A stretch of 64,000 nucleotides of DNA, from NCBI RefSeq assembly GCF_039978735.1, contig NZ_JBDWAS010000058.1, positions 525 through 64,524 of the forward strand. The letters are read 5' to 3'. The position numbers were made by a program, and so were the translations under genes. Source of the stretch: Maricaulis sp. (GTDB lineage: Bacteria > Pseudomonadota > Alphaproteobacteria > Caulobacterales > Maricaulaceae). Every line of letters starts with the position of its first letter. Positions within the stretch are counted from its first letter, which is position 1. Below the pieces are notes generated by a model, which was not told where the DNA came from, did not search any database, and worked only from the letters and a program-made list of their open reading frames with translations. Shown piece by piece: positions 15,111 through 32,635 of the stretch.

Positions 15111-16316
15111 CTACACCCGTTCGACCACCATGGCGCTGCCGACGCCCGAACCGCCGTGCACCACAACCAATCCAAGACTGCCCCCTTGGCGCTCCATACC
15201 GTCAACAAGCGTGCCCAGCAGGATGGCACCTGAGGCCCCCATCGGGTGCCCCATCGCCAGGTGTCCGCCATCGGGATTGACCCTGTCGGGATCGGGTGCG
15301 TATTCGCGCTCGAAGCGGACCGGCGTGGCGGCGAAGGCCTCCATGAACTCGATCCGGTCGAAATCGCCGATCGCGAGCCCGGTCTGCGCGAGAACACTGT
15401 CCATCGCGGCGAAGCCGGCGGTGAGTTGCAGCACGGGATCGGCGGTGGCTTCGGCAAAGCCGCGAATCCGCGCGCGCGGGGCGAGGCCGGCGGCCTCGCC
15501 AGCCGCCCGTGACCCGATCAGCACCAGTCCGGCGCCGTCGCAGGTCGGCGGGCAGTTGGCCACGGAATGCACGTGCCGGATCGCGTCGAGTTCCGGCCGC
15601 GCCGCGAGCATGATGGCGTCGAATCCTTTTGCGCCCATTCCGGCGAAGGCCGGTTCCATCGCGGCGAGGCTTTCTGCCGTTGTGTCGGGGCGGATGCCTT
15701 CATCATGGGCGAGGGCGACCGATCCGTCCGCGCGGACGATCGGCACAACGCCCCCCAGATCGCCGCGCGCCCAGGCGGCTGCTGCGCGCTGGTGCGAGCG
15801 CAGCGTCACGGCGTCGAGGTCCGCCTTGTCATAGCCGTTCATCGTGGCCATCAGGTCGGCGGACAGGACCACCGGCACATAGCGCAGGCGGGCGGCGGTT
15901 TCCGGGTCGTCATAATAGAAAGCGTGGTCGCCCATGAAGGGCACGCGCGACATCATCTCGACACCGCCGGCAATGCGCAGCCGGTCGTCGCCAAGCGCGA
16001 GGGCGTCGCTGGCAGACAGGCCGACGGCGGTGAGGCCGGAAACGCAGAAATTGTTGAGTGAAAGCGCCCGCATCTCCGGCGGCAGATTGGCGTGTAGCCG
16101 GCTGACCAGCGCGATATGTCCGCCCTGGGCGCCGATCTGGCCGACACAGCCCAGCGTCAGCCCGGCCGCCCGACCGATCGTGTCTTCGCCGGTGCGGGTC
16201 CTGAGCGCATCGATCAGCTGGCTGACCAGTTCCTGCGGTGTGAATTCGGCAAGGCCTCCGGTGGCCTTCGACTTGCCGCGCGGCGTCCGCACCGCGTCGT
16301 AAACATAGACTTCCAT
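15111..16316 (-). CDS. acetyl-CoA C-acyltransferase (thiolase)
   Basis: 401 aa. MEVYVYDAVRTPRGKSK, active-site context NNFCVSGL, C-terminal GHPMGASGAILLG and VVHGGSGVGSAMVVE. Confidence 0.9.
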   Translation of the reverse strand: MEVYVYDAVRTPRGKSKATGGLAEFTPQELVSQLIDALRTRTGEDTIGRAAGLTLGCVGQIGAQGGHIALVSRLHANLPPEMRALSLNNFCVSGLTAVGLSASDALALGDDRLRIAGGVEMMSRVPFMGDHAFYYDDPETAARLRYVPVVLSADLMATMNGYDKADLDAVTLRSHQRAAAAWARGDLGGVVPIVRADGSVALAHDEGIRPDTTAESLAAMEPAFAGMGAKGFDAIMLAARPELDAIRHVHSVANCPPTCDGAGLVLIGSRAAGEAAGLAPRARIRGFAEATADPVLQLTAGFAAMDSVLAQTGLAIGDFDRIEFMEAFAATPVRFEREYAPDPDRVNPDGGHLAMGHPMGASGAILLGTLVDGMERQGGSLGLVVVHGGSGVGSAMVVERV

Positions 16317-16322
16317 GCCCGA

Positions 16323-17582
16323 TCAGACCCCGATCACCAGACTGACACTGGCGGTCGTCGATCCGCCGACATTATAGGTCGCCGCTGTGCGGGCGCCCTC
16401 GACCTGGCAGTCCCCCGCCCGGCCCGAGGTCTGGCGGGCTGCATCCAGTGCCATGCGCACGCCGGTCGCGCCGACGGGATGGCCAAGGCCGATCAGACCG
16501 CCCGACGGGTTGAAGGGAAGCTTGCCGCCGGGCGCGATGACGCCGTCCTCGACCGGTTTCCAGGCCTCGCCCGGAGCGGACAGGCCGAAATGCTCGATCG
16601 CCATGTATTCGGTGACCGAGAAACAGTCATGGGTTTCAACAAGGTCGAGATCGTCGGGCCCCGACAGGCCTGCCCGGGCGTAGGCATCGGTGATCGCCTT
16701 GCGCACCCAGGGGAAGATATAGCCGTCGGTGCCGGCGCTCTCCGCCAGCTTTGACTCAAGCAGAAGCGGCGCCGTGGTGTGGCCCCAGCCTTTCAGTCGC
16801 GGAATGTCTTCCAGATCGAGGCCGCGGGCGTCGGCATACTCCCGGGCCACCTCTTCTGAGGCGAGGAAGATCACGGCCGCACCGTCGGTGACCTGGCCGC
16901 AATCGCTCTTGCGCATCCAGCCCTCGATCACCGGATTGGCTTCATCGTCCTGGGCAAAGCTGCGCTCGGTAAACTCCCAGTTCCGCGTCTGGGCGTTCGG
17001 ATTGCGGCGGCCGTTGGCGAAGTTGATCTTCGAGATCTCCGCGAGGTGTTCCGGGTTCAGCCCGTAGCGGCGGTCGTACTCAGCAGCGAGATTGGAGAAC
17101 ATGGCCGGCCAGAGGTAGCGGGCGCCGATGGCCTCGCGTCCGGCCCAGGCCGCGGCGCCAAGATTCTCCGCTGCGGTCTGGCCGGGCACATTGCGCATCA
17201 TCTCGACGCCGATGACGCCAGCCAGTCCATAGCGGCCGGCCTCGATATCCGCCATGGCCGCCAGGATCGCCATGGAGCCGGAAGCGCAGGCGGCTTCGTG
17301 CCGGCTGGTGGGCAGGCCGGCGAAGGCGGGATTGGCGTGGACGGCCATGCCGCCCAGCAGACCCTGGCCGCAGAAGAGTTCCGCCGCGAAATTGCCGACA
17401 TGGAGCACTTCGACATCGCCGGCATCGATCCGCGCATCCTCGAGCGCGGCCTCGGTCGTCTCGGCGATCATGTCGAACAGGCCCTTGTTCTCGCGCGTCC
17501 AGTTGCGCGCGAAATCGCTCTGGGCGCCGCCGAGAATGAAGACGGGCGGGGCGCTGGTCCGGGCGGTCGATCGATAGGTCAT
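16323..17582 (-). CDS. thiolase-like protein (SCP-x / lipid-transfer-type thiolase)
   Basis: The track ORF extends to 17618 (GTG). The ATG at 17582 (MTYRSTART) has AAGGGGA upstream. Motifs: EAACASGSMAIL, NPSGGLIGLGHPVGATGVRM. Confidence 0.85.
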   Translation of the reverse strand: MTYRSTARTSAPPVFILGGAQSDFARNWTRENKGLFDMIAETTEAALEDARIDAGDVEVLHVGNFAAELFCGQGLLGGMAVHANPAFAGLPTSRHEAACASGSMAILAAMADIEAGRYGLAGVIGVEMMRNVPGQTAAENLGAAAWAGREAIGARYLWPAMFSNLAAEYDRRYGLNPEHLAEISKINFANGRRNPNAQTRNWEFTERSFAQDDEANPVIEGWMRKSDCGQVTDGAAVIFLASEEVAREYADARGLDLEDIPRLKGWGHTTAPLLLESKLAESAGTDGYIFPWVRKAITDAYARAGLSGPDDLDLVETHDCFSVTEYMAIEHFGLSAPGEAWKPVEDGVIAPGGKLPFNPSGGLIGLGHPVGATGVRMALDAARQTSGRAGDCQVEGARTAATYNVGGSTTASVSLVIGV

Positions 17583-17666
17583 GGCGTCCCCTTTTCGGTG
17601 TTCTGCGGCTCTGGGCACTCCGGCCGTCAGGCGATGATGGTCTGGTCGGGCAATCTGACAATGAAT

Positions 17667-17998
17667 TAACTTGCGTAGTCAAACCCACTTTATCGATGCT
17701 ATGGTCGTGGAGCAAGTGGAGAGCTGCGGGCACGGTGCTTGTGGTCTGTGCAAGTCAGTTTGCGGTCGCGATAAAGCCCAGACTGTGTGGCCTGTTGCAG
17801 CATCTGTGCAGGGCCATCCGGGGTTTGAATTCGCAAGTCCGTTCCGGGGCGCGGGACGTTCAGCGTGCACGGTCAGACAGCCGATTTTCTGGTTTCAGTG
17901 CGCAAGTGCACAAATGCCGAATAATGGCGGCAAGTCCCTTATATATCGCGATTTATCGCCCGGTTCGAAGAATCCGTACTAACTTGCATTGACGAACC
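17667..17998. promoter_or_regulatory. cluster of 5-6 copies of the ACTTGC(A/G)..AAACC motif in the thiolase/TBDR divergent intergenic region
   Basis: 17667-17685(+) TAACTTGCGTAGTCAAACC. 17739-17757(-) TGACTTGCACAGACCACAA. 17822-17840(-) GGACTTGCGAATTCAAACC. 17891-17909(-) GCACTTGCGCACTGAAACC. 17919-17937(-) GGACTTGCCGCCATTATTC (weak). 17980-17998(+) TAACTTGCATTGACGAACC. Confidence 0.5.
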
Positions 17999-18090
17999 TA
18001 GCTCGCTGCGTGTAGCGTTCCTTCCGGTGTGACCCTCAAACCAATAGCGCTGGCAAGGCAGCTTCGGGTGCACCGAAGGGGAGGAATACC

Positions 18091-20406
18091 GTGAATAAGT
18101 TCAAACAAATGACGGCACTGGCTCTGATACTCGGCATGACCGGGACAGCCGGTGCTCATGCCCAGAATGCCGAGCCGGAAGAGACCGGATCGGGCCCGCA
18201 GCTCGACGTGATCGAGATCACGGCGCAACGCCGTGCGGCAAGCGTCCAGGATTCCGCCATCGCTGTTTCGGCGATCAGCGGGGAAAACCTCGAAAAAGAC
18301 CGGATCCTCAGCTTCGAGGATCTGGCAGGCAGCGTGACATCGCTGTCCTTCACCGCACTGTCGCCGCTGGACCAGGAATTCAACGTCCGCGGCATCACCA
18401 ATACCCGTCTCGACTCACCGTCGGCAGACCAGTCGATCGGCATCTTCCTGGACGATGTCTATGTGGGCCGGTCGGGGTTGTTCAATGCCGACATGTACGA
18501 CATTGAACGGGTCGAGGTCGTGCGCGGCCCCCAGGGCGTGCTTCTGGGACGCAATGTGGTCGGCGGTGCCATCAGCATCGTGACCGCCAGCCCGGAATTC
18601 GAGACCAGCGGTGCGCTGTCGGTGTCCCTGGGCAATTACAATGAAACGCTCGTGCGGGGCCATGTGACCGGTCCGATCAACGAGGTGCTTGCAGGCCGGA
18701 TTTCCTTCTCGTCCCGCGATCGGGGCGGCTTCAATCACGACCTGCTGCATGACCGCGAGCTGGACGATCTGCGCTCCTTGCAGGCCCGGGCTCAGCTGCT
18801 GTTCCAGCCGATTGACGGAAATGTGTCGGCTCGCCTGGTCATCGACTATATGGACGACGAGTCGAACGGCTTCCATTCCGTGGCAATCGACGGCCCCGAT
18901 CCAGCGACGCAGGGCCCGTGGAGCGCCATGCGCGAGCTGATCGGTACCGCCCGCGGCCGGCCGCTCGATATCCGCGAGAGCTTCCCGGAACACCCGATCT
19001 ATGCGGGTGACACGGTGGAGTCCCCGCAGGCGCTGCGGCGTGAAGCCTGGGGTGTCTCGCTCGACATCGACCGGGATATCGGCGACTTCGCCACCCTGAC
19101 CAGCATCACCGGCTATCGCCAGGGTCACGCCTACAATCTCTATGACCAGACCGGCATGGGGCCGAACAGCGGCTATGGCATTGTTTCGCCGCTTCTGTTC
19201 CGCTTTCCGGTCAATGAGCGCGAAGAGATCAGCCAGTTCACCCAGGAATTCCGGCTTGTCTCCGATCTTGGCGACAGCAATTTCGACTGGATCGTCGGCG
19301 CCTACTACCAGCACGACGAAGTCGAGAAGTTCGACCGGTTCTGGGCGGAAGTTCCCTTCCCGGCGCTGGCAACCCTGTCCGGTGAATCGCACTGGGACAA
19401 CTTCGCGGAAACCACCTCTGCTGCCGTCTTCGGTCAGCTGGGCTACCAGTTCACCGAGAACTTCCGGGTCGTGGCGGGTATCCGCTACACGCGGGATGAA
19501 AAGTCCGGCACCGTGTTCGCGCGGGCTGTGGAAGGTGGCGACGCCTTCAACCCGACCGACCAGGTGGCCCTGACGCCGCTCGCCGGCACCTATGTGGAAG
19601 GCGATACCTTCTCGGCGAACTACGGCATGGAATGGGAAGAAGTGACGCCGCAGGTGACGGCGGAATACGAGCCCAATGACAATGCCCTGTTCTATCTGAC
19701 CTGGTCGCGCGGCTATAAGGGCGGCGGGTTCGAAGACGACCCGGCCAACCCGGCGGCCGCCCAGGCCGGCTATGATCCGGAGACGGTCGAGAATATCGAG
19801 TTCGGCGCCAAGCTGGACTTCTTCGACCGGCGGGCCCGGCTCAACGTTGCTGCCTTCATGATGGATTATCAGGACCTGCAGGTGACGCAGACCGATGATG
19901 GTTGCCTGTGCAACATCACCGACAATGCGGCCGATGCCGAGATCATGGGTATCGAGGCCGAGTTCCAGTTTGCCGCCACCGACCGCCTGATGATGTGGGC
20001 GGGCGCCACGGTGCTGGAAACCGAATATGTCGACTTCGTCGACAGCAACGGTCTCGACACGTCCGGCAACACGCTTCAGCGCACGCCGGAGACCCAGTTC
20101 AATGTCGGTGCCGAGCTGACGCTCGATGTCGGCACCTGGCGGGACGCGCTCTCCATCCGTGGCAATTACAGCTATCAGGGCGAGATGTTCTGGGCACCGG
20201 ACAACGCCCAGACGGAAGACGCATACGGCCTGCTCGATGGGCGTGTCACCCTGACGCCGCCGGATCGGGACTGGACCGTCTCGGTGTGGGGCAAGAATCT
20301 GACCGACGAGATCTATCGCACCAATATCATCGCCTTCTTCGGCGATGAGGTGTCCCGCCTGGGCGCGCCGCGCACTTACGGGATCGAGCTCTCGACGACC
20401 TTCTAG
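18091..20406 (+). CDS. TonB-dependent receptor
   Basis: 771 aa. GTG start after GGGGAGGAA. Signal peptide ends AGAHAQNAE. Plug: LDVIEITAQRRAASVQDSAIAVSAI and VEVVRGPQGVLLGRNVVGGAISI. C-terminal YGIELSTTF. Confidence 0.9.
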   Translation: MNKFKQMTALALILGMTGTAGAHAQNAEPEETGSGPQLDVIEITAQRRAASVQDSAIAVSAISGENLEKDRILSFEDLAGSVTSLSFTALSPLDQEFNVRGITNTRLDSPSADQSIGIFLDDVYVGRSGLFNADMYDIERVEVVRGPQGVLLGRNVVGGAISIVTASPEFETSGALSVSLGNYNETLVRGHVTGPINEVLAGRISFSSRDRGGFNHDLLHDRELDDLRSLQARAQLLFQPIDGNVSARLVIDYMDDESNGFHSVAIDGPDPATQGPWSAMRELIGTARGRPLDIRESFPEHPIYAGDTVESPQALRREAWGVSLDIDRDIGDFATLTSITGYRQGHAYNLYDQTGMGPNSGYGIVSPLLFRFPVNEREEISQFTQEFRLVSDLGDSNFDWIVGAYYQHDEVEKFDRFWAEVPFPALATLSGESHWDNFAETTSAAVFGQLGYQFTENFRVVAGIRYTRDEKSGTVFARAVEGGDAFNPTDQVALTPLAGTYVEGDTFSANYGMEWEEVTPQVTAEYEPNDNALFYLTWSRGYKGGGFEDDPANPAAAQAGYDPETVENIEFGAKLDFFDRRARLNVAAFMMDYQDLQVTQTDDGCLCNITDNAADAEIMGIEAEFQFAATDRLMMWAGATVLETEYVDFVDSNGLDTSGNTLQRTPETQFNVGAELTLDVGTWRDALSIRGNYSYQGEMFWAPDNAQTEDAYGLLDGRVTLTPPDRDWTVSVWGKNLTDEIYRTNIIAFFGDEVSRLGAPRTYGIELSTTF

Positions 20407-20415
20407 ACATGCAAA

Positions 20416-20441: not shown

Positions 20442-20453
20442 GCACTCCCGCCT

Positions 20454-20496: not shown

Positions 20497-21240
20497 TCAG
20501 GTCTTCGGGGCCATCCGGTCGGCCATCGACTTGGCGAGACCGTAGGGGTCGCGGGCCAGATGCGCGCGCACGGCGATGGAATGCGGATCGGTGTCGTGCT
20601 CGGCGACGGCGTTTGCGATGGCCCAGAGACCGGCCTTGCCGATATCGCGCGGCTGGGACTTCTTCACCTTCACATGCGCGGCCATCCGGGTGTCGACCGA
20701 GCCGACGATCAGGGCCGTCACGCCGACGCCCAGCGGCGCCAATTCGGCGCGCAGGCAGTCCGATGCTGCTCGGGCTGCAAACTTGGACGGGCTGTAGCCG
20801 CCCATGTCCGGAACGGCGACGATACCGCCGGCCGACAGCACGTTGATGATGCCGCCGCCCCCGTTCGCGGCGATAACCGGCGCGAAGGCCCGGCTCATCG
20901 ACAGGACGCCGAAATAATTGACTTCCATCTCGCGCCGGGCCGCATCGGGGTCGTCAGTGCCATAGAGGCGCTGCATCTCGAACGCGCCGGCATTGTTGAC
21001 CACAAGCGTGACGTCCCGCGCCTTTTGCGCGGCGGCCGCGACCTGCTCGGGCCGGGTCACGTCCAGCTCGACGGGTACAATCCGCGACGGATCCGTTTTT
21101 GCGACGTCTTCAGCATCGGCCAGCTTGCGCGCGCCGACATAGACGCGTGCCGCGCCATGGTCGAGCAGCTCTTCGACAAAGCCGAGGCCGATGCCGCGGT
21201 TGCCGCCGGTAACGATCGCTGTGCAGCCTTCGATCTTCAT
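20497..21240 (-). CDS. SDR-family oxidoreductase
   Basis: The track ORF extends to 21342. The ATG at 21240 (MKIEGCTAIVTGGNRGIGLGF) lies 1 nt after the upstream stop. TGxxxGxG and YSPSKFAARA (YxxxK) are present. Confidence 0.85.
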   Translation of the reverse strand: MKIEGCTAIVTGGNRGIGLGFVEELLDHGAARVYVGARKLADAEDVAKTDPSRIVPVELDVTRPEQVAAAAQKARDVTLVVNNAGAFEMQRLYGTDDPDAARREMEVNYFGVLSMSRAFAPVIAANGGGGIINVLSAGGIVAVPDMGGYSPSKFAARAASDCLRAELAPLGVGVTALIVGSVDTRMAAHVKVKKSQPRDIGKAGLWAIANAVAEHDTDPHSIAVRAHLARDPYGLAKSMADRMAPKT

Positions 21241-21241
21241 G

Positions 21242-21802
21242 TCAGCTCCAGTCCTGGCTGTAGAGAATGTCGTCGGGTTTCTTGGCGCCGCGCACGAGAG
21301 CCGCCGGATCCGGCGCGATCGCACCGCGGCCCCAGCTCTCATGCAGCGGCATTTCGTGGTTCCACTCCCAGGCGAGGCGGCGATGGGCGATTGCCCAGCG
21401 GCCGTCGCGGCGCTCGAAGCGGTCGATCACGCGCGCCATGGTGAGGCTGTCGAACGGATCGTCGACGCCGGTATCGCGGCGGGAGAAGGTCATGATGTAG
21501 CACTCGGTCAGGGCGCGATCGCCGTCCAGCTCGATCATGATGTTGGTAACGGCGTGGGTCATGCGCGGCGCTTTGGGCAGGACCTTGCGCATCGTGGCCA
21601 CATACTCCGAAGCCGGGCCCTTGAACGTGCCGCCATGGTCCTCGATGGCGTCGTCGTGATAGGCGGCCGCAATCAGATCGGCATCGCCCCTATCAGCGCC
21701 GCGGCAATAGCTGACAAGGACCTCGTAGATCGCCTGTTTGTCGAGGAGCGCGCGGAGCTCGCTCATCATCGCAGCGTCGGCATTTGCGGGAGTGTCGGTC
21801 AT
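21242..21802 (-). CDS. NTF2-fold protein, SnoaL_4 / ring-hydroxylating-dioxygenase-beta-like
   Basis: 186 aa. LRALLDKQAIYEVLVSYCRGADRGDADLIAAAYHDDAIEDHGGTF. Clear paralog of 32096..32635. Confidence 0.8.
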   Translation of the reverse strand: MTDTPANADAAMMSELRALLDKQAIYEVLVSYCRGADRGDADLIAAAYHDDAIEDHGGTFKGPASEYVATMRKVLPKAPRMTHAVTNIMIELDGDRALTECYIMTFSRRDTGVDDPFDSLTMARVIDRFERRDGRWAIAHRRLAWEWNHEMPLHESWGRGAIAPDPAALVRGAKKPDDILYSQDWS

Positions 21803-24291: not shown

Positions 24292-24316
24292 GTTTCGGCG
24301 CGGCGACCGATTTTGG

Positions 24317-25282: not shown

Positions 25283-25390
25283 GTCGTGAGGCGCGATGGG
25301 TTCCTGTTGATCTGATGCGGAGCCCGAATCCGCGCTCCGCTTGCGCAGTGATACCTGTTAAGCGCCATGGCCCGTCATCGCAAGGCTGCC

Positions 25391-25417
25391 GGCCGGTCTG
25401 CGACAATCAGACCGGCC
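25391..25417 (-). terminator. GC-rich hairpin downstream of the MFS gene (no U-tract)
   Basis: GGCCGGTCTG-CGACAAT-CAGACCGGCC, a perfect 10-bp stem 10 nt beyond the MFS stop codon. Confidence 0.35.
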
Positions 25418-25426
25418 GCACAGGCC

Positions 25427-26770
25427 TCAGACGTCGACCTCCCGCCGGGCATAGCCGGCCGACAGGAAGAAGAGGCCGGTGGCAATCGCAAAGCCGATTG
25501 GCGACACGATCGCGATGGCGTAACGCACCCCCTCGTCGAACGGGAAGAAGGTGTCGCCCACCAGCGCGGTGGCGGTCGGTCCGGCGCCCAGCCCGACCAG
25601 GTTCACCACGAAGAGGTAGATCGCCGACAGGGTGGCCCGCATCCGGTTGGGTGTGAGCTGCTGAAGCGCGCTCGCGGCGGCGCCGATGGGCACGGCTGCT
25701 GCCGAGAAGAAGACCACGAAGGCAACGGCCGACAGCGCGGGCGATCCGGCGAGCGGGAAGATCACGGCAAACACGGTCCCCGCAAGGCCCGCAAAGCCGC
25801 AGAAGGCAAGGCGCCCCGCTGCCGTCCCGCCGCCGAAACGGTCTGTCGCCCAGCCGCCGCCCACCAGGCCGATCAGTCCGCCGATGATCAGCGCGCCGCC
25901 GGCGAGGTGGCCGGCTGACGCCAGGTCCATGCCGTGCACGCGGATCAGGAAGACCGGGAACCAGGAGACCGCGGCGAACACGGCGAAATTGACCATGCCG
26001 ACCGCGAAGCACAGGCCCAGAACGGCACCCGCGCGTTTGCGGATAAAGCTCATCACCTCGCGCATCGGCACCGCTTCGCGCACAGTCCCGGCGGCGACGC
26101 CGTGACGGGGCGGCTCGGGCAGGATCATGAACAGGCCCGCAATCAGCAGGCCGGGCATCCCGACGATGATGAAGGTTGCCTGCCAGGCGCTGAGTTCGCC
26201 GAACAGGGGCAGGGAAATCGACCCCGCATTGGCAACCATCTCGATCACGACGGCGCCGATCAGGAAGGCCAGGCCCGCGCCGACGGCCGACCCCAGACCG
26301 TAAACGCCCATGGCAAGGCCGAGGCGTTTCTGCGGAAAGGAATCCGAGATGATCGAATAGGCGGCCGGCGACAGGGTCGCTTCGCCGACGCCCACGCCCA
26401 TGCGTGCCAGGAAGAGCTGCCAGTAGTGTACGGCCAGACCGCAGGACGCGGTCATCACGCTCCACAGCGCCACACCGGCAGCAACGATGGGCAGGCGCGT
26501 CGAGCGGTCGATCAGCCGGCCCAGCGGCAGGCCCATCACGGTGTAGAAGATCGCAAAGGCGAAACCCTGCAGCAGGCTGACCTGCGTGTCCGTCAGGTCG
26601 AGGTCGGCCTTGAGGGGCTCGACCAGAAGACCGATGATCATCCGGTCGATGAAGGAGAAGATGTAGGCGATGAAGAGAACGGCCACCATCGCCCAGGCCA
26701 CGGCCGGCGCGGGGTAACCGTCCTCGCTGGCGGCGGCCCCGCCCGGGCCGCCGGCCGTTGCGTCACTCAC
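25427..26770 (-). CDS. MFS transporter
   Basis: 447 aa and strongly hydrophobic throughout. MFS motif-A-like GLPLGRLIDRSTR. Overlaps the upstream secreted LEH-like gene by 4 nt. Confidence 0.85.
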   Translation of the reverse strand: MSDATAGGPGGAAASEDGYPAPAVAWAMVAVLFIAYIFSFIDRMIIGLLVEPLKADLDLTDTQVSLLQGFAFAIFYTVMGLPLGRLIDRSTRLPIVAAGVALWSVMTASCGLAVHYWQLFLARMGVGVGEATLSPAAYSIISDSFPQKRLGLAMGVYGLGSAVGAGLAFLIGAVVIEMVANAGSISLPLFGELSAWQATFIIVGMPGLLIAGLFMILPEPPRHGVAAGTVREAVPMREVMSFIRKRAGAVLGLCFAVGMVNFAVFAAVSWFPVFLIRVHGMDLASAGHLAGGALIIGGLIGLVGGGWATDRFGGGTAAGRLAFCGFAGLAGTVFAVIFPLAGSPALSAVAFVVFFSAAAVPIGAAASALQQLTPNRMRATLSAIYLFVVNLVGLGAGPTATALVGDTFFPFDEGVRYAIAIVSPIGFAIATGLFFLSAGYARREVDV

Positions 26771-27255
26771 CGGGCTTCTGCGTCGAAGTCGGTGTGAATG
26801 CCCATGGCTTCGAGAAGCTCGGCGCGGTCATAATATTCCCGCCACTCCTGGATGGAGCCGTCATCATTGATCTCGATGACGCCGACCACCGGTACGGCGC
26901 CCGCATGACCGTTATAGACGAACTCGTCGACCCGCTCGATGAAGACGACGTCGCCGACCTGGCCGATATTCCGGACATTCAGCGTGATCTCCTCGATGCC
27001 GGCGCCGATATGGCCGATGCGGGCTGCGAGGGCTTCATGGCCCACGATCGGGTCGACCATCATCGAATGCAGCGAACCGTCCTCGGCAAACATCGAGACG
27101 ACGCGGTCCCAGTCCTGCGTGTTCCAGGCATCGACCATGTCCAGAACGACCTGGACCTTCGGATTGTCAGAGGTCTGCTGCGTGCCGGTGTCGGCAAGCG
27201 CGGCCCCGGCAGGCATAGCTACGCTCAGCGCGAGAGCGACGACAAGATTACGCAT
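26767..27255 (-). CDS. Sec-exported LEH-fold (NTF2 superfamily) protein
   Basis: 162 aa. Signal peptide MRNLVVALALSVAMPAGAALA|DTG. VFIERVDEF and IEINDDGSIQEWREYYD. GGGAGGAATTC lies before the ATG. Confidence 0.8.
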   Translation of the reverse strand: MRNLVVALALSVAMPAGAALADTGTQQTSDNPKVQVVLDMVDAWNTQDWDRVVSMFAEDGSLHSMMVDPIVGHEALAARIGHIGAGIEEITLNVRNIGQVGDVVFIERVDEFVYNGHAGAVPVVGVIEINDDGSIQEWREYYDRAELLEAMGIHTDFDAEAR

Positions 27256-27269
27256 GAATTCCTCCCATA

Positions 27270-27288
27270 GGTTTTATTGTGCAAGTCA
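27270..27288 (-). promoter_or_regulatory. island motif copy 14 nt upstream of the secreted LEH-like gene
   Basis: The minus strand reads TGACTTGCACAATAAAACC, then TATGGGAGGAATTC, then the ATG (27255). Confidence 0.55.
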
Positions 27289-27312
27289 TAAGAGCGGGAG
27301 AAATCCGGTGCG

Positions 27313-27741
27313 TCAAGCAGAACCGGATTCGCCAGCCAGCAGAGGCTCGACCCAGGCCGGCACAGGCTCGCCTGCGCGCGCCGCAGCAATCGCGGCGCTG
27401 TCGACATAATCCCGCCAGCGCCAGATGCGGCCGTCGCGGAACTCGAAAACGCCGGCATAGGGGGTGCGGATGCGCACGCCCTCGGCATTCACATAATCAT
27501 CGACGCCCTCGACCATCAGCAGGTCGCCGGTTTCGCTGTGCCGGGTGATCGACCAGGCGATCTCCGTCTGACCAGCACCGAATTTTTCGAGAAAGCGGCG
27601 GATGGCGTCGCGGCCCTCCAGCGGGCGGGAGCCGACATGATAGTGGTAGACAACATCCTCGCAGACAGCGTCCAGCACGGTTTCGATGTCGCCGCGCTTC
27701 CAGGCTTCGATGATGCGATGAACGGTGTCGATATGCGCCAT
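27313..27741 (-). CDS. LEH-fold (NTF2 superfamily) protein, cytoplasmic
   Basis: 142 aa. MAHIDTVHRIIEAWKRGD, LMVEGVDDY, VFEFRDGRIWRWRDYVD. Confidence 0.75.
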   Translation of the reverse strand: MAHIDTVHRIIEAWKRGDIETVLDAVCEDVVYHYHVGSRPLEGRDAIRRFLEKFGAGQTEIAWSITRHSETGDLLMVEGVDDYVNAEGVRIRTPYAGVFEFRDGRIWRWRDYVDSAAIAAARAGEPVPAWVEPLLAGESGSA

Positions 27742-27785
27742 TGCGCCGCCCTTCGGTGAGTTGCGAGCGCAGCCTAGTCATTTCA

Positions 27786-27804
27786 GGTAACGTAATGCAA
27801 GTCA
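27786..27804 (-). promoter_or_regulatory. island motif copy 44 nt upstream of the gene starting at 27741
   Basis: The minus strand reads TGACTTGCATTACGTTACC. Confidence 0.5.
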
Positions 27805-27876
27805 TATCGCGTGGCGGGTTTTCGGGTTGGTCCGTTCATCGATTGACAGTCCCGCGAAGAGCGCTCTAACGTGACA

Positions 27877-27895
27877 TGAATTGCATAATAATACC
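27877..27895 (+). promoter_or_regulatory. island motif copy 11 nt upstream of the acyl-CoA ligase ATG
   Basis: TGAATTGCATAATAATACC, then TGGATGTCGTC, then the ATG (27907). Confidence 0.55.
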
Positions 27896-27906
27896 TGGAT
27901 GTCGTC

Positions 27907-29751
27907 ATGCCCGCAGACTACCGCGCCGTGGAATTCCCGCCGGTTGACCTTGAAATAGACCGCCGTCCCGACGGGACGATCGTGATGACGCCGCGCGAGC
28001 CGCTCGATGTCAGGGATGCTTCCGTCCCGGCGGGTCTGGCGCGTCAGGCGCGGCTGCAGCCGGACAAGGTGCATCTGGCGGCCCGCCCGGCACGGGGCGA
28101 GCCCTGGGTGACGGCGAGCTTTGCCGAGGTGAAGGCGCGGGCAGACGCGCTGACCCGCTTCCTGCTCGACCGGGGCGTCGACCCGGCCAGACCGCTGGTG
28201 ATCGTTTCGGGCAATTCGATCGACCACGCCGTTGTGCGCTATGGCGCGATGGGGGCAGGTGTGCCGGTGTGTCCGGTCAGTGCGAATTATGCCCTGCTGG
28301 GCGCAGCCGGCGGGTTCGAGCGCCTGCGCCACGTGATGGACATGGTCAATCCGGGCTTCGTTTTCGCGGAAACGGCGGCTTATGCCCCCGCAGTCGACGC
28401 GACGGCGCCGGCCGATGCGGTGGTGTTGAGCCGGGCCCCCGACGCTTTCAGGACGCCAGCAAGCGATCTGGCCGACGTGCTGTCCGCACCGGCCGGAGAC
28501 GACATCGAAGACCGGATCGCTGCGCTCGATCCCGATGCGCCGGCGGCCTACATGCTGACGTCCGGCTCGACCGGAAAGCCCAAGGCCGTGATCCACACCC
28601 AGCGCATGATCACCTCCAATCTCTATCAGGGATGGCAGGTGCTCGGCCGCGCTGCCGGCTGGGACGATGTGCTGCTGGAATGGCTGCCCTGGAGCCATGT
28701 CTCCGGCGCCTTTTCCTCGATGGCCGCGGCGATCTTCGGCGGTACTTTCTACATCGACAACGGCAAGCCCTTGCCCGGTCTGTTCGACGAGACGATCGAG
28801 AATCTGCGCGAAGTTCCACTGACCTACTTCACCAATGTGCCCGCTGGCTATGCGATGCTCACCGAGGCGCTGGAGAAGGATGAGGCGCTGCGCAAGACCT
28901 TCTTCGAGAAGCTGCGTCTGATGCTCTATGGCGGAGCGGGTCTGCCGCAGCCCGTCTATGATCGCCTGCAGGCGATCGCCGAGGCGGAGACCGGAAATCG
29001 CGTCTTCATGACGACCGGATACGGCGCCACCGAGACCACATCGGGCTGTATGTCGATCTATTTCCATTCGGAAAAAGTCGGGATCGGTCTGCCGATGCCG
29101 GGGCTTCAGGTAAAGCTTGTCCCGCTGGACGAGACCCGTTTCGAACTGCGCATGAAGGGACCGATGGTGACGCCGGGCTATCTCGGCCGGCCGGACCTGG
29201 AAAGCCAGATCCGCGACGAGGACGGCTTCTACAGGATCGGCGACACAGCCCGCTTTCACGATCCGGCCGACCCCGCCCAGGGCCTCGCCTTTGCCGGCCG
29301 GCTGGCCGAGGAATTCAAGCTCGATACCGGTACATTTGTCAGCGGCGGCGAGCTGCGGGCCGAACTGGTGCGCGTCGGCGCGCCGCTGATCACAGATCTC
29401 GTGCTGTGCGGTGAAAACCGGTCCTACCTGTCCGCCCTGATCTGGCCCAACGCCGGGGCGCTGGCAGCCGAAGCCGGACTGCCGGACATGCCACCCGCCG
29501 ACCTGGTACGCGATCCGCGCGCCCTGGCCGCTATCGAAGCGCGCCTTGCGGCACACAATGCGGCGTGCTCCGGGTCGAGCGAACGCATTCGCCGGTTTGC
29601 CCTGCTGTCAGACCCGCCGAATGCCGAACGCCACGAAGTATCTGACAAGGGAACGATCAATCAGGAGGCGGCCCGGCGTCATCGCGCCGCCGATGTGGAG
29701 CGTCTCTATGCCGACACGCCCGACGCGGGCGTGGTGGAAATCGCACGCTGA
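27907..29751 (+). CDS. AMP-dependent acyl-CoA synthetase/ligase (feruloyl-CoA-synthetase-like long form)
   Basis: 614 aa. AMP-binding motifs YMLTSGSTGKPKAVIHTQR, TTGYGATET, YRIGDTARF and SDKGTINQ. Confidence 0.85.
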   Translation: MPADYRAVEFPPVDLEIDRRPDGTIVMTPREPLDVRDASVPAGLARQARLQPDKVHLAARPARGEPWVTASFAEVKARADALTRFLLDRGVDPARPLVIVSGNSIDHAVVRYGAMGAGVPVCPVSANYALLGAAGGFERLRHVMDMVNPGFVFAETAAYAPAVDATAPADAVVLSRAPDAFRTPASDLADVLSAPAGDDIEDRIAALDPDAPAAYMLTSGSTGKPKAVIHTQRMITSNLYQGWQVLGRAAGWDDVLLEWLPWSHVSGAFSSMAAAIFGGTFYIDNGKPLPGLFDETIENLREVPLTYFTNVPAGYAMLTEALEKDEALRKTFFEKLRLMLYGGAGLPQPVYDRLQAIAEAETGNRVFMTTGYGATETTSGCMSIYFHSEKVGIGLPMPGLQVKLVPLDETRFELRMKGPMVTPGYLGRPDLESQIRDEDGFYRIGDTARFHDPADPAQGLAFAGRLAEEFKLDTGTFVSGGELRAELVRVGAPLITDLVLCGENRSYLSALIWPNAGALAAEAGLPDMPPADLVRDPRALAAIEARLAAHNAACSGSSERIRRFALLSDPPNAERHEVSDKGTINQEAARRHRAADVERLYADTPDAGVVEIAR

Positions 29752-29778
29752 CGACCTGCCTGACCAACGGAGCAAGAC

Positions 29779-30585
29779 ATGCCTGAATTTGTGTTTGTGA
29801 TCGGCGTCAACTTCGCCGTCCTGATCGGTACCATGCTGGCCCTCTGGCTGATCAGCGTTGCCATTGGCGATGTCAGCTTCATCGACTCCTTCTGGGCGGC
29901 GGGCTTTGTGCTCGTGGCCTTTGTGACCCATTTCCTCACCCCTGACGGCGACGCCCAGCGCAAGCTCCTGCTGCTGGCGATCACGACGGTGTGGGGGCTG
30001 CGCCTGGCCGGCTACCTGCTCTGGCGCTGGCGCAAGGAAGGGCCGGACAAGCGCTATGTCGCTCTGCTCGGCAAGGCCAAGGGCAATCCGCACATGACCA
30101 GTCTGACGAAGGTCTTCCTGCTGCAGGGTGTCCTCTTGTGGATCGTCTCGCTGCCGGTGCAGCTGGGCCAGGTGCCGGCGCAGCCGGCCGGCGTCAGCTG
30201 GCTGGCCTGGGCAGGCGCCGCGCTGGCGATCATAGGCATCTTCTTCGAGACCGTCGGCGACTGGCAGATGGCGCGGTTCAAGGGCAATCCGGACAATGCC
30301 GGCAAGGTCATGGACCAGGGCCTGTGGCGCTATACGCGGCATCCCAACTATTTCGGCGATGCCTGTGTCTGGTGGGGCCTGTTCCTGATCGCGGCGGAGA
30401 CGACGCTGGGCCTGTTCGCGATCGTCGGCCCGATGCTGCTCACCTTCCTGCTCGTCCAGTGGAGCGGTGCCGCCCTCCTGGAGCGCCGTCTCAAGCGGTC
30501 GCGGCCCGAATACGAGGCCTATATCCGCCGCACCAGTTCCTTCATTCCGATGCCGCCGCGCCGCGATAGCGGCGAAACGGCCTGA
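29779..30585 (+). CDS. DUF1295-family membrane protein (steroid-5-alpha-reductase / ICMT-like fold)
   Basis: 268 aa with multiple TM segments. WRYTRHPNYFGDACVWWGLFLIA motif. Confidence 0.75.
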   Translation: MPEFVFVIGVNFAVLIGTMLALWLISVAIGDVSFIDSFWAAGFVLVAFVTHFLTPDGDAQRKLLLLAITTVWGLRLAGYLLWRWRKEGPDKRYVALLGKAKGNPHMTSLTKVFLLQGVLLWIVSLPVQLGQVPAQPAGVSWLAWAGAALAIIGIFFETVGDWQMARFKGNPDNAGKVMDQGLWRYTRHPNYFGDACVWWGLFLIAAETTLGLFAIVGPMLLTFLLVQWSGAALLERRLKRSRPEYEAYIRRTSSFIPMPPRRDSGETA

Positions 30586-30600
30586 TCACAGGAGTCCCCG

Positions 30601-32082
30601 ATGTCTGTTGTGAAGCTCGGCACGGTCCCGCACCGCGATCCCGATCCGAACCATCCCTATACGTCCGGTGCCTGGACGCCGGTGTTCGACGAGTATGACG
30701 CCGACGATCTCGAAGTGATCGGCGAGATCCCGAAGGATATCGACGGGATCTACGTCCGGAACAGCGAGAATCCGGCTTTCGGTTCGATCGGTCTTTATCA
30801 CCCGTTCGACGGCGATGGCATGATCCACACCATGTCCTTCCGCGACGGCAAGGCGAGTTACAAGAACCGCTTTGTGCGGACCAAGGGGCTGATGGCCGAG
30901 ATCGAGGCGGGCAAGCCGCTCTGGGCCGGCATTGCCGAGGATCCGCGCCTGTCGACCCGGCCGGGCTGGGGCGCGCATGGCGGCATCAAGGACTCATCCT
31001 CGACCGATGTCGTCGTGCATGCCGGCAAGATCCTGTCGACCTTCTATCAATGCGGGGAGGGCTATCGGCTCGACCCCTACACGATGGAACAGTTCGGGAC
31101 GGAAGGCTGGGTGCCGCTCGACGGTATCTCGGCACACCCCAAGCTGGACGAGAACACGGGCGAGCTGCTCTTCTTCAACTACTCCACCCACGCGCCCTAC
31201 ATGCATTACGGCGTCGTCGGGCCGGACAACAAGCTCAAGCACTACATCCCGATCCCCGTGCCGGGCCCGCGCCTGCCGCACGACATGGCCTTCACAAAAA
31301 ACTATTCGATCATCGCGGATCTGCCGCTGTTCTGGGATGCCGATATTCTGGCCAAGGGGCGCCATGCCGCGCGCTTCCACCGCGACATCCCGACCCGCTT
31401 CGCCATCGTGCCGCGCTACGGCCAGCCGGAAGACATCCGCTGGTTCGAGGCCGATCCGACCTATGTGCTGCACTGGATGAATGCCTGGGAAGAGGGCGAC
31501 GAGATCGTGCTCGACGGCTATTTCCAGGAAGACCCGGCGCCCAAACCGCTTGAGGCGCCCGGCGGCGATCCGCGCCTCGGCCAGCTGATGGCCTATCTGG
31601 ACGAGAACTCCTTCAAGCCGAAGCTGCATCGCTGGCGCTTCAACCTGAAGACCGGCGCGGTCAGCGAAAGCCATCTCGACGACCGGCTGCTTGAATTCGG
31701 AAGTTTCAACCAGACGTATGGTGGCGAGAAGTCGCGCTATCTCTACTCCACCTTCACCAAGCCGGGCTGGTTCCTGTTCGAGGGTCTCGTGAAGCACGAC
31801 TTCGAGACCGGCAAGAGCGAGACGCTCAACTTCGGTGAGGGCCGGTTCGGCAGCGAGGCGCCGTTTGCGCCGCGCGTCGGCGCCAGGTCGGAGGATGATG
31901 GCTACATCGTCTCCTTCATCACGGACATGGTCGAAAACCGCTCGGAATGCGTCCTGATCGACGCGCAGAACATTGCCGACGGTCCGGTGTGCCGGATCAT
32001 CCTGCCCCACCGGATTTCCAGCGGCACGCACGCAAGCTGGGCCGACGGCCCGACCGTGCGTGCAGCCCAGTCAGCAGCCTGA
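30601..32082 (+). CDS. carotenoid-cleavage-oxygenase-family dioxygenase (ACO/LSD/NOV-like)
   Basis: 493 aa. YHPFDGDGMIHTMSF. Four candidate iron-ligand His in the contexts DVVVHAGK, ISAHPKLD, RLPHDMAF and SGTHASW. Confidence 0.85.
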   Translation: MSVVKLGTVPHRDPDPNHPYTSGAWTPVFDEYDADDLEVIGEIPKDIDGIYVRNSENPAFGSIGLYHPFDGDGMIHTMSFRDGKASYKNRFVRTKGLMAEIEAGKPLWAGIAEDPRLSTRPGWGAHGGIKDSSSTDVVVHAGKILSTFYQCGEGYRLDPYTMEQFGTEGWVPLDGISAHPKLDENTGELLFFNYSTHAPYMHYGVVGPDNKLKHYIPIPVPGPRLPHDMAFTKNYSIIADLPLFWDADILAKGRHAARFHRDIPTRFAIVPRYGQPEDIRWFEADPTYVLHWMNAWEEGDEIVLDGYFQEDPAPKPLEAPGGDPRLGQLMAYLDENSFKPKLHRWRFNLKTGAVSESHLDDRLLEFGSFNQTYGGEKSRYLYSTFTKPGWFLFEGLVKHDFETGKSETLNFGEGRFGSEAPFAPRVGARSEDDGYIVSFITDMVENRSECVLIDAQNIADGPVCRIILPHRISSGTHASWADGPTVRAAQSAA

Positions 32083-32095
32083 ACGGAGATTGGAC

Positions 32096-32635
32096 ATGAG
32101 CTATCCGCCGAACACGCTTGAGACCCTGATCGCCAAACAGGACATACAGGACGTCCTCGCGCGCTATGCCCGGGGTGTGGACCGGGCCGACGCCGACCTG
32201 CTCCTGTCCTGCTATCACGCTGATGCGATCGAGGAGCATGGCAGCACCTACAAGGGTCCCGCGCACGAATACGTGCTGGGCGCGGTCGAGCGTCTGGCAA
32301 AGCTGAGCCATCCGATGGCGCACTATGTCAGCAATGTCCACGTCGAGTTCTCCGACGATGGCGAGACGGCCTGGGTCGAGAGCTATGTGCTCACCTTCGC
32401 GCGCTTCGACGACAAGTCGGGCCAGGCGCATGACACGCTGACCGGCGGCCGGCTGGCCGACCGTTTCGAGCGCCGCGGCGGGATCTGGCGGATCGCTCAC
32501 CGCAAGATGGCCTTCGACTGGAACCGCGACGCCCCGGCCAACGAGACCTGGTGCCTGGGCCTGTTCAATCCCGACGACCCCAAAATGGTCATGGGCAAGC
32601 GCGGCAAGGAAGACCTGTCCTACAGCCGGTTCTAG
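32096..32635 (+). CDS. NTF2-fold protein, SnoaL_4-type; paralog of 21242..21802
   Basis: In frame in track ORF 31973..32635, with an ATG at 32096. LIAKQDIQDVLARYARGVDRADADLLLSCYHADAIEEHGSTYKGPAHEYV. Confidence 0.8.
   Translation: MSYPPNTLETLIAKQDIQDVLARYARGVDRADADLLLSCYHADAIEEHGSTYKGPAHEYVLGAVERLAKLSHPMAHYVSNVHVEFSDDGETAWVESYVLTFARFDDKSGQAHDTLTGGRLADRFERRGGIWRIAHRKMAFDWNRDAPANETWCLGLFNPDDPKMVMGKRGKEDLSYSRF

Follow-up and report, generated by a model that had tools for sequence, protein, structure and literature searches.

The stretch of Maricaulis sp. DNA analysed here (64,000 nucleotides of contig NZ_JBDWAS010000058.1, hereafter the window) contains, at positions 15111-32635, a 17.5-kb island of 16 genes arranged in four transcription units, and among these genes is one for a non-haem iron oxygenase of the carotenoid-cleavage family. 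Genes were called from the listing of open reading frames (ORFs) together with third-position GC content and Pfam and NCBIfam scans. By these means, every gene that a first-pass annotation had listed for the island was recovered at or near the position it gave, but its inventory was incomplete in that it omitted a tandem HxlR-type regulator. NCBI entries from Maricaulis sp. match the oxygenase protein with 100% identity. The island very probably represents one co-regulated catabolic unit, because its gene neighbourhood is conserved in other genomes and its intergenic regions share a sequence motif, and the best-supported interpretation is that it serves the co-regulated uptake and catabolism of a hydrophobic, non-phenolic conjugated alkene.

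The first unit, on the minus strand, consists of thiolB (16323-17618, with a probable ATG at 17582; Thiolase_C_1 domain), encoding an SCP2-type 3-ketoacyl-CoA thiolase, followed by thiolA (15111-16316), encoding a 401-aa thiolase-fold protein with Thiolase_N and Thiolase_C domains. A 472-bp divergent control region (17619-18090) separates this unit from the second, on the plus strand, which encodes a 771-aa TonB-dependent outer-membrane receptor with Plug and beta-barrel domains (18091-20406). The third unit comprises nine genes on the minus strand. In the direction of transcription, these specify LEH3, a cytoplasmic NTF2-fold protein of the limonene-1,2-epoxide hydrolase (LEH)/SnoaL_2 type (27313-27741); LEH2s, an exported protein of the same type (26767-27255); a 447-aa transporter of the major facilitator superfamily (MFS; MFS_1 domain; 25427-26770); the tandem HxlR-type winged-helix regulator (321 aa; 24317-25282); SDR2, a short-chain dehydrogenase/reductase (SDR) that resembles MFE-2-type (3R)-hydroxyacyl-CoA dehydrogenases (23330-24259); a 357-aa DapB-like NAD(P) oxidoreductase with DapB_N and DAP_DH_C domains (22260-23333); LEH1, another cytoplasmic LEH/SnoaL_2 protein (21799-22263); Sno4a, an NTF2-fold protein of the SnoaL_4 type (21242-21802); and SDR1, a 247-aa oxidoreductase with an adh_short domain that scores above the cutoff for NCBIfam PRK08264.1-4 (20497-21240). 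The fourth unit, on the plus strand, diverges from the third across a 165-bp promoter region (27742-27906) and encodes a 614-aa AMP-binding acyl-CoA synthetase-like ligase (AMP-binding and AMP-binding_C_3 domains; 27907-29751), a DUF1295 membrane protein (29779-30585), the 493-aa oxygenase (30601-32082), and a further SnoaL_4 protein, Sno4b (32096-32635). Several stop/start pairs overlap or abut, as at the ATG of the DapB-like gene and the stop codon of SDR2, and a Shine-Dalgarno-like sequence precedes most of the genes. Scans of the island for promoters and terminators were uninformative: promoter-like sites numbered 1 (2.7 expected) and terminator-like sites 10 (9.6 expected).

Conservation of this gene set was examined in a scan of one genome per species, in which 570 relatives of the oxygenase turned up. 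Of these, the best 80 (65-98% identity) were inspected with 10 kb of flanking sequence on each side, and neighbours were counted both by tblastn with the island proteins and by independent clustering of all ORFs. The 80 loci (designated by L numbers) span Alpha- and Gammaproteobacteria, Acidimicrobiales (Ilumatobacter), Myxococcota, and Acidobacteriota. The most conserved neighbour is thiolB, which lies near the oxygenase gene in 31 of the 80 loci, usually directly downstream and with a median gap of 13 bp; the tandem HxlR gene and the DUF1295 gene follow closely (30 and 30-32 loci, respectively, the latter with a median gap of 35 bp). Genes for LEH-like proteins (19 loci), thiolA (17-22), the TonB-dependent receptor lineage (17-26), the MFS transporter (16-18), SDR1 (12-13), the PRK12582-type ligase (11-16), the DapB-like protein (11-12), and SnoaL_4 proteins (9) recur in smaller numbers. 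None of the three flanking genes of the window that were tested was found near the oxygenase in any of the 80 loci. Conserved co-occurrence of the oxygenase with its neighbours, which the first-pass annotation had proposed to look for, was thus observed in many of these loci.

Among the 80 loci, the full island is limited to Maricaulis and Hyphobacterium (L001-L005). Near-complete islands, with differing gene orders, are present in an unclassified Pseudomonadota metagenome-assembled genome (L018) and in Kordiimonas (L036), both of which carry orthologs of the TonB-dependent receptor (59-70% identity) inside the cluster; further near-complete islands were identified in Hyphococcus and its relatives (L025, L033, and L045) and in Sphingomonadaceae (L070 and L076). 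An NMO-family gene, a candidate for an enoyl reductase, is found in 23 loci and a second AMP-ligase gene in 20, and neither is present in the window; some related clusters also add genes for an aldehyde dehydrogenase, an acyl-CoA dehydrogenase, and a thioesterase, which the window likewise lacks. More distant clusters, whose oxygenases are 44-50% identical, are plasmid-borne in Sphingopyxis granuli and Cupriavidus basilensis and contain a regulator, an MFS transporter, a ligase, NMO, an SDR, an aldehyde dehydrogenase, a thiolase, and an outer-membrane channel.

Individual loci show additional variations. The Hyphobacterium island contains a second RPE65-family oxygenase (L002:16623-18062, also in L004) that is 43% identical to the first, and beside it are an NMO-family gene, a second ligase gene, and a further SCP2-type thiolase gene; the window has no copy of this group. 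In Bermanella, a DUF1329/DUF1302 outer-membrane pair, labelled as a lipid-uptake pair, lies directly upstream of the oxygenase gene and replaces the TonB-dependent receptor (L034:6386-9742). In L051 and five similar loci (Lentisalinibacter and Woeseiaceae), the oxygenase ortholog has no island partners, and its neighbours, judged by eye, appear to encode a methyltransferase of the cyclopropane-fatty-acid-synthase type upstream and a tannase/feruloyl-esterase-type protein downstream.

A sequence motif links the units of the island. It was first seen when the spacers were read, as a recurring GCAAGT with GGTTT ahead of it. Allowing at most one mismatch, this 17-bp motif, GGTTT-N6-GCAAGT, occurs six times in the window against 0.38 copies expected, a number reached in 0 of 100 shuffles, and all six copies are situated in spacers of the island. 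Four copies lie in the control region between thiolB and the receptor gene (17669 and 17982 on the minus strand; 17822 and 17891 on the plus strand). Another (24273-24289) is contained in a palindromic, operator-like element between the regulator and SDR2 genes (24247-24292; CTTGCA...CTATAAAAC-gatg-GTTTTATAG-TGCAAG), which occupies the same position in L001-L005 and also includes a weaker copy at 24247. A further copy, GGTTTTATTGTGCAAGT, in the spacer between LEH3 and LEH2s (27270-27286, plus strand) is likewise kept in L001-L005, and the divergent promoter region of the LEH3 and ligase operons holds a weaker copy, GGTAAcgtaatGCAAGT (27786-27802), with equivalent sites in L002, L003, and L036. 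Outside the island, a copy with two mismatches, AGTTAgggcatGCAAGT, was noted at 52949-52965, in the spacer that separates a TPR-GGDEF-EAL gene (50305-52905) from a subtilase gene (53051-56278).

The motif also recurs at the corresponding places in L001-L006; it is found upstream of genes of the cluster in L018, L036, and L025/L033/L045 and, as a perfect copy, 44 bp before the oxygenase start in Bermanella (L034). Loci with a close ortholog of the HxlR regulator (at least 55% identity) contain 29 hits in 291 kb against 2.8 expected (1.0 per 10 kb), whereas those without one contain 7 hits in 835 kb (0.08 per 10 kb), and across loci the hits fall at the promoters of the same genes. The shared motif provides good evidence for one regulon, and its distribution suggests that it is read by the tandem HxlR regulator. 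This protein scores 112 bits against PF01638 over two stretches and fuses two HxlR domains, each followed by a C-x9-10-C-x2-C motif (CGHEFEPVPACGDCG and CGHELTPVVVCSHC); a conserved N-terminal Cys (IRTCSIWRALEVVGD) is present in repeat 1 only. The three-Cys motifs could form a metal or redox site. The half-sites of the DNA motif differ from each other and are spaced by about one helical turn, so a fused pseudo-dimer whose two winged-helix domains have diverged would be well suited to them. Members of the HxlR family are thiol-based sensors of electrophiles and aldehydes, including formaldehyde.

If these genes were unrelated metabolic genes brought together by chance, variation of cluster content between genomes, with the full set only in Maricaulis and Hyphobacterium, would be expected, as would the approximately one-quarter of oxygenase orthologs that have no island neighbour within 10 kb. 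The base composition of the block, which is the same as that of the rest of the window (about 65% GC; 0.62-0.70 inside and outside the island alike), would also fit, and within the window it gives no sign of recent transfer of the island. Chance does not account, however, for the presence of the core neighbours in at least 30 of the 80 loci across phyla while the flanking genes appear in none, for a motif that marks all control regions and is conserved in orthologous clusters, or for the translationally coupled genes; we consider this explanation extremely unlikely.

The oxygenase matches the RPE65 family (PF03055) with 405.6 bits (cutoff, 27), its residues 26-481 covering positions 2-468 of the 469-position profile. 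Its iron ligands H179, H227, H291, and H477 align with His-167, 218, 282, and 472 of the lignostilbene dioxygenase (LSD) LsdA and are invariant among 79 family members, in agreement with the earlier description of a four-His carotenoid-cleavage-family enzyme. Placement within the superfamily was based on bit-score ranking and pairwise identities. The best match in PDB is a carotenoid 9,10-dioxygenase (CCD1; 9m6z; 246 bits), followed by lignostilbene dioxygenase (173), VP14 (168), NOV1 (155), CAO1 (145), and ACO (142 bits), and the protein is 35% identical to CCD1 and 26-30% identical to LsdA, Cso2, RbCCO, and HsCCO. Across phyla, members of the family share 65-83% identity and conserve the hallmark FYQCGEG (residues 148-154), and no characterised member was found. 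By sequence, the oxygenase is a distinct, strongly conserved bacterial family whose nearest relatives are CCD1-type carotenoid cleavers. In a separate observation, the second-shell Glu next after Lys-134 of LsdA (KEDS) and its counterpart in CCD1 (SEMD) align to Gln150 of the Maricaulis enzyme, a position held by Q in 66 members and M in 13, and the nearby Glu153 of FYQCGEG is conserved instead.

The first-pass annotation had considered that lignin-type stilbenes or isoeugenol-like compounds fitted the oxygenase equally well. In such a scheme, an LSD-type oxygenase and a feruloyl-CoA synthetase would degrade lignostilbene, resveratrol, isoeugenol, or 4-vinylguaiacol, and the common superfamily of the oxygenase and LSDs, the PRK12582 type of the ligase, and the presence of an HxlR regulator, as a sensor of formaldehyde and other electrophiles, agree with it. 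NTF2-fold enzymes, moreover, partner LSDs in sphingomonad lignin-dimer pathways. The active site of the oxygenase argues otherwise. In LSDs, Tyr-101 and Lys-134 hydrogen-bond the 4-hydroxyl of the substrate (PMC8191317). In the HMMER alignment, LsdA Tyr-101, Lys-134, and Phe-59 correspond to Ala112, Tyr149, and Phe69 of the Maricaulis enzyme, and across the 79 members position 112 is A, M, T, or V, never Tyr, and position 149 is Y or W, never Lys. The isoeugenol/4-vinylguaiacol oxygenases Cso2, RbCCO, and HsCCO (sequences from Table S1 of PMC6700365) carry both the Tyr (GxYRN) and the Lys (KEDS); they are 45-46% identical to LsdA, and identities within this set of four are 45-62%. Absence of the Tyr/Lys pair and the identity of 26-30% to these enzymes therefore disfavour a stilbene or phenylpropene type. 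The island also has no genes for vanillin/vanillate conversion, ring cleavage, or demethylation, its beta-oxidation enzymes are of a branched-chain lipid type, and its SnoaL_4 proteins match no diarylpropane lyase in PDB searches. Degradation of lignin-type substrates is thus very unlikely, and a carotenoid or apocarotenoid substrate appears to be the better reading. The Cso2/RbCCO family had been considered since relatives occur in Caulobacterales and Rhodobacteraceae; membership was rejected because those enzymes are LSD-type and 26-28% identical to the Maricaulis oxygenase. The second Hyphobacterium oxygenase also lacks the Tyr/Lys pair.

The enzymes predicted to process the cleavage products have features of branched-chain beta-oxidation. 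ThiolB matches NCBIfam PRK06289 above the cutoff (637 bits), its best PDB matches are SCP2-thiolase-like proteins (4bi9, 3zbg, and 6hsj), and it contains CASG at 111, HDCF at 330, NPSGG at 370, and GHPVGATG at 379, corresponding to the motifs that we take to define SCP2-type thiolases (CxSG, HDCF, NPSGG, and GHP(V)GATG). Of the two thiolases previously proposed, thiolB thus has the full set of motifs, but thiolA lacks two canonical catalytic ones. ThiolA resembles PRK08242, although this and every other NCBIfam equivalog model score below the cutoff, and it retains the nucleophilic Cys and the GHP His, with MEAF in place of NEAF and His in place of the Cys of the C-terminal CxG (VVHGGSGVG); it may be a non-thiolytic enzyme rather than a true thiolase. 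In thiolA orthologs of at least 49% identity (L002, L003, L006, L025, L033, L045, L073, L076, L077, and L079), the C-terminal Cys is likewise lost, being H, L, F, T, or A, and MEAF again stands in place of NEAF, except in L025, which has AEAF; more distant gammaproteobacterial homologs keep this Cys. In PDB, SDR2 is matched best by the yeast MFE-2 (3R)-hydroxyacyl-CoA dehydrogenase (2et6; 225 bits), ahead of mammalian 17beta-HSD4 (1zbq and 1gz6; 140 bits) and generic SDRs (about 99 bits), and SDR2 is accordingly predicted to be an MFE-2-type (3R)-hydroxyacyl-CoA dehydrogenase. The peroxisomal MFE-2/SCPx pair handles 2-methyl-branched acyl-CoAs, such as pristanoyl-CoA. If an apocarotenoic acid were activated at the end of its chain, the 2-enoyl-CoA units that it offers would alternate between unbranched and 2-methyl-branched forms. 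The best NCBIfam match of the ligase is the acyl-CoA synthetase PRK12582, below the cutoff (682 bits; cutoff, 777), a type that, as we understand it, is often annotated as feruloyl-CoA synthase; its best PDB match, 6oz1, is weak and uninformative (84 bits). The earlier label of a feruloyl-CoA-synthetase-like ligase finds no confirmation in these matches.

The five NTF2-fold proteins, which the first-pass annotation had taken as a set of five paralogs, are present as described but constitute two sequence families, two SnoaL_4 proteins and three LEH/SnoaL_2 proteins, between which no similarity is detectable. Sno4a and Sno4b, whose mutual alignment had been pointed out, are 45% identical, and the peptides quoted for them were found in the translations. 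LEH1 shares 38% identity with LEH3, and LEH2s shares 28-30% with either of the two. In a comparison of the SnoaL_4 family profile with LinA (3a76; E=1.9e-6), the VDKR Asp and IHY His of LinA, presumably its catalytic pair D25/H73, align to the invariant D29 and H76 of Sno4b. The AlphaFold2 (AF2) model of Sno4b (pLDDT 91.2) is closest, in Foldseek, to a putative scytalone dehydratase (3ef8), LinA, and BaiE (probability 1.00; TM 0.6-0.8), and the SnoaL_4 proteins are probably elimination enzymes of the dehydratase type. Sequence and profile searches of PDB with the SnoaL_4 proteins returned LinA, Rv3472, and uncharacterised NTF2 proteins only, and a candidate link to the diarylpropane lyases that act with LSDs was rejected for want of a match in these searches.

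For the LEH-like proteins, scores against PF07858 (cutoff, 24) are 40.5 (LEH1), 40.1 (LEH2s), and 52.6 bits (LEH3), with SnoaL_2 scores equal or higher, and the best PDB match of LEH3 is limonene-1,2-epoxide hydrolase (5aif; E=3.4e-14). Relative to ERVD and WRDYFD, which we take to carry the Asp-Arg-Asp triad of the Rhodococcus enzyme, LEH1 and LEH3 have EGVD (Arg to Gly) with WRDY, and LEH2s has ERVD with WREY (Asp to Glu). LEH2s begins with a signal-like N-terminus (MRNLVVALALSVAMPAGAALA/DTG), a property shared by all of its orthologs, one of which has a lipobox, and its stop codon overlaps the MFS start by 4 bp, for which translational coupling is predicted; the proposed co-transcription of an exported LEH-fold protein with an MFS transporter agrees with both features.

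The DUF1295 protein (253 bits) gives additional weak Pfam matches to Steroid_dh (28.8 bits), PEMT, and ICMT. Its AF2 model (pLDDT 91.8) is most similar in Foldseek to sterol delta14-reductase (4quv) and steroid 5alpha-reductases (7c83 and 7bw1), with probabilities of 0.99-1.00 and TM values of 0.47-0.59, and ICMT, a methyltransferase of the same clan, ranks below these NADPH-dependent C=C reductases (probability 0.77-0.80; TM 0.34). For UsgR, a PEMT/DUF1295-like protein of fungal origin, ene-reductase activity has been proven (PMC8597850). On the basis of the structural model, the DUF1295 protein is a candidate NAD(P)H ene-reductase. The DapB-like protein matches 7xdu and a 2,4-diaminopentanoate/amine dehydrogenase (6g1m) with about 70 bits in PDB and, as far as these matches indicate, is related, though distantly, to dehydrogenases of 2,4-diaminopentanoate and to native amine dehydrogenases.

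These reductase similarities bring a steroid, a sterol, or another non-carotenoid alicyclic terpenoid into consideration as the substrate. In that case, cleavage by the oxygenase would be directed at an unusual conjugated alkene, such as the triene of a secosteroid or a side chain with a diene. SDR2 and the SCP2-type thiolase resemble enzymes of sterol side-chain beta-oxidation, and the NTF2-fold proteins include a BaiE-like fold and a weak match, in the NCBIfam scan, to a 'ketosteroid isomerase-related' model. TonB-dependent receptors and MFS transporters are, according to the literature, common in sphingomonad steroid clusters, and the related clusters add NMO-type genes, which we take to resemble the steroid enoyl-CoA reductase gene IpdC. 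Nevertheless, KstD, KshAB, and HsaABCD, the hallmarks of steroid ring opening, are absent from the window and from the related clusters inspected, and we know of no carotenoid-cleavage-family enzyme that acts on steroids. Furthermore, the oxygenase is conserved more strongly than any other element of the cluster, which indicates that the pathway centres on cleaving a C=C bond in a conjugated system. A steroid-type substrate is consequently judged unlikely.

The oxygenase could also belong to a stress or turnover system that clears photo-oxidised or excess carotenoids or reactive lipid aldehydes, whether the cell's own or imported, or that makes an apocarotenoid signal or retinal, under the control of an electrophile-sensing HxlR protein. 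Such a role would be in keeping with electrophile sensing in this regulator family, with the sensory N-terminal Cys kept in repeat 1, and with the adjacency, judged by eye, of the oxygenase to a cyclopropane-fatty-acid-synthase-like gene in some genomes. In addition, singlet oxygen induces a DUF1295 gene in Chlamydomonas (PMC4067076), and DUF1295 genes adjoin rhodopsin genes in some bacteria (bioRxiv 10.1101/2021.02.16.431466). The gene content of the cluster points in another direction. The TonB-dependent receptor (Plug, 54 bits; barrel, 159 bits; signal-like N-terminus), the exported LEH-fold protein, and the MFS importer imply uptake of an external substrate, the CoA ligases, the thiolases, and the aldehyde and acyl-CoA dehydrogenases of the relatives imply carbon assimilation, and domain scans of the window detected no crt, blh, or rhodopsin genes. 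A stress or turnover function therefore seems rather improbable, and catabolism of an imported alkene remains the preferred interpretation.

The catabolic scheme that we favour follows the general order of the first-pass annotation, i.e. import, C=C cleavage, tailoring, CoA activation, and thiolysis, which is strengthened by the conserved synteny, the shared cis-element, and the closer family assignments. The TonB-dependent receptor would bring the substrate across the outer membrane, the exported LEH-fold protein would bind it or act on it in the periplasm, and the coupled MFS transporter would move it inwards. The CCD1-like four-His iron oxygenase would then split a polyene double bond, generating aldehyde or ketone fragments. 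The DUF1295 protein would reduce an activated C=C bond, while the SDRs, the DapB-like protein, the LEH-like proteins, and the SnoaL_4 proteins (by Asp-His elimination) would tailor hydroxyl, keto, and epoxy groups on ring fragments. After oxidation of the fragments by an aldehyde dehydrogenase encoded elsewhere, the ligase would activate the acids, which MFE-2-type SDR2 and SCP2-type thiolB would shorten. Expression of all units would be set by the tandem HxlR protein through the asymmetric GGTTT-N6-GCAAGT operator, and its signal may be an electrophilic aldehyde product. From these considerations we infer that a carotenoid or apocarotenoid, i.e. an oxygenated, methyl-branched isoprenoid polyene, is the likeliest substrate; the complete statement, with a carotenoid-derived substrate included, is in our estimation evenly balanced between right and wrong.

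Several points weigh against this scheme. An identity of 35% to CCD1 leaves the specificity of the oxygenase unfixed, no member of its family has a known substrate, and about one-quarter of its orthologs lack any island neighbour within 10 kb. The island encodes no aldehyde dehydrogenase, enoyl-CoA hydratase, or acyl-CoA dehydrogenase and is therefore not a complete pathway, although the clusters of its relatives carry the aldehyde dehydrogenase and acyl-CoA dehydrogenase steps; thiolA, as noted above, departs from thiolases at two catalytic motifs. The roles given to the NTF2-fold, DUF1295, and DapB-like proteins are predictions, epoxide hydrolysis by the LEH-like proteins is unproven because their catalytic residues are only partly conserved, and the Foldseek E-values of the DUF1295 model are weak (0.012-0.17). 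The pairing of the motif with the tandem HxlR regulator is based on their co-occurrence. Finally, many of the enzyme types, among them proteins with a ketosteroid isomerase-type fold, a 17beta-HSD4-like SDR, an SCP2 thiolase, and a protein resembling 5alpha-reductases, would be just as typical in the breakdown of steroids.

The genes on either side are unrelated to the island. The left flank is formed by a MacB-type ABC efflux system (10429-15089), whereas two glycosyltransferase-like genes and a gene for a Na/sulfate symporter lie to the right. A relative, L001 (92% nucleotide identity), is colinear with 20606-32635 and resumes at 34565, and this jump from 32635 to 34565 indicates that 32635 is the true boundary of the island. 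The segment absent from L001 (32636-34564), containing a TOD1/MUCI70-like gene and a GT2 glycosyltransferase gene, is a strain-specific insertion of about 1.9 kb. The region covered by the window is rich in outer-membrane uptake genes, with four further large TonB-dependent receptor genes (6211-9237, 41819-45070, 45127-48099, and 60829-63906), one of which has an STN domain and lies behind an ECF sigma/FecR pair (39972-41760), and, besides the efflux system mentioned, a second one of the MacB type (56406-60769). An ORF of 482 aa at 37155-38603 contains two TetR_N helix-turn-helix stretches and TetR_C_24 and resembles a second tandem-fused regulator.

Carotenoids are among the most abundant lipids of algae, plants, and bacteria, and to our knowledge no genetically defined bacterial pathway has been reported that imports them for use as carbon. 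The component families of the island are known, and TonB-linked catabolic islands are common. The bacterial carotenoid oxygenases known to date have been studied as isolated enzymes (reviewed in PMC5133782). No description of this cluster was found in the literature searched, and the features not described there are the association of a CCD1-like oxygenase with an SCP2-type thiolase, a DUF1295 protein, and a tandem HxlR regulator, together with the two NTF2 subfamilies, the receptor lineage, and the asymmetric operator. We tentatively suggest, as a possibility short of a probability, that the island is the first recognisable dedicated bacterial regulon for the uptake and assimilation of carotenoid-derived polyenes, widespread in marine and soil Proteobacteria and beyond and switched on, possibly by aldehyde products, via a new kind of tandem HxlR sensor. 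Just as tentatively, its parts, taken jointly, would be a CCD1-like oxygenase with a membrane ene-reductase, NTF2-fold ring-tailoring enzymes, and a peroxisome-like branched-chain beta-oxidation pair. If this is true, the regulon would account for some of the marine turnover of algal pigments, provide functions for DUF1295 and the two NTF2 subfamilies, and supply enzymes for apocarotenoid flavours and fragrances; if the substrate differs, the cluster nonetheless defines a catabolic module that is widespread and unstudied. The locus offers testable parts, namely a conserved oxygenase family, fixed partners, and a candidate operator that could be used as a reporter.

Among known systems, the regulator is most readily compared with HxlR/YodB-type (DUF24) proteins, with which it shares PF01638 domains, two in this case, and the N-terminal Cys of its first repeat. 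It differs from them as a fused 321-aa tandem, or pseudo-dimer, with C-x9-10-C-x2-C after each repeat and with a candidate operator that is asymmetric rather than a simple palindrome. In its beta-oxidation enzymes, the island is similar to peroxisomal branched-chain beta-oxidation and to bacterial sterol side-chain degradation, having both SDR2 (with MFE-2/17beta-HSD4 as its best matches) and thiolB (SCP2-type with HDCF), but it lacks the hydratase-2 (MaoC) domain, the SCP2 lipid-binding domain, and the acyl-CoA oxidase/dehydrogenase of the peroxisomal system. The bai operon of bile-acid 7alpha-dehydroxylation combines the same enzyme types, i.e. a CoA ligase, an SDR, an NTF2-fold dehydratase, and an ene-reductase, and its BaiE is a structural neighbour of Sno4b; in the bai logic, such enzymes strip an oxygen function from an alicyclic ring. 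Sequence similarity between the SnoaL_4 proteins and BaiE is undetectable, however, LinA and Rv3472 being their closest sequence relatives, and in Maricaulis the candidate reductase is a membrane DUF1295 protein instead of a flavoenzyme, the organism is aerobic, and an oxygenase stands at the centre of the cluster.

Three groups of characterised enzymes are relevant to the oxygenase itself. LsdA, LSD4, NOV1, Cso2, RbCCO, and HsCCO share with it the superfamily, the fold, and Phe-59 (F69 here); the LSD-type enzymes are bacterial catabolic enzymes whose aldehyde products are later funnelled to central metabolism. They differ in having Tyr-101/Lys-134 where the Maricaulis enzyme has Ala112/Tyr149, and the island neighbours do not include aromatic funnelling genes. 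NACOX1, an 8'-apo-carotenoid 13,14-dioxygenase found in Novosphingobium aromaticivorans pNL2 (PMC5133782), is an apocarotenoid-cleaving bacterial enzyme of the common superfamily, but at 28% identity to the Maricaulis oxygenase it was rejected as an ortholog. CCD1 (9m6z, 9m3e, and 9luz) resembles the oxygenase in its four-His iron site, in having no phenol-binding Tyr/Lys, and in an identity of 35% over almost the full length, a level at which regiospecificity is not transferable. The bacterial family is set apart from CCD1 by its FYQCGEG hallmark and, in the case of the Maricaulis enzyme, by its location in a catabolic uptake cluster rather than in a biosynthetic or signalling context.

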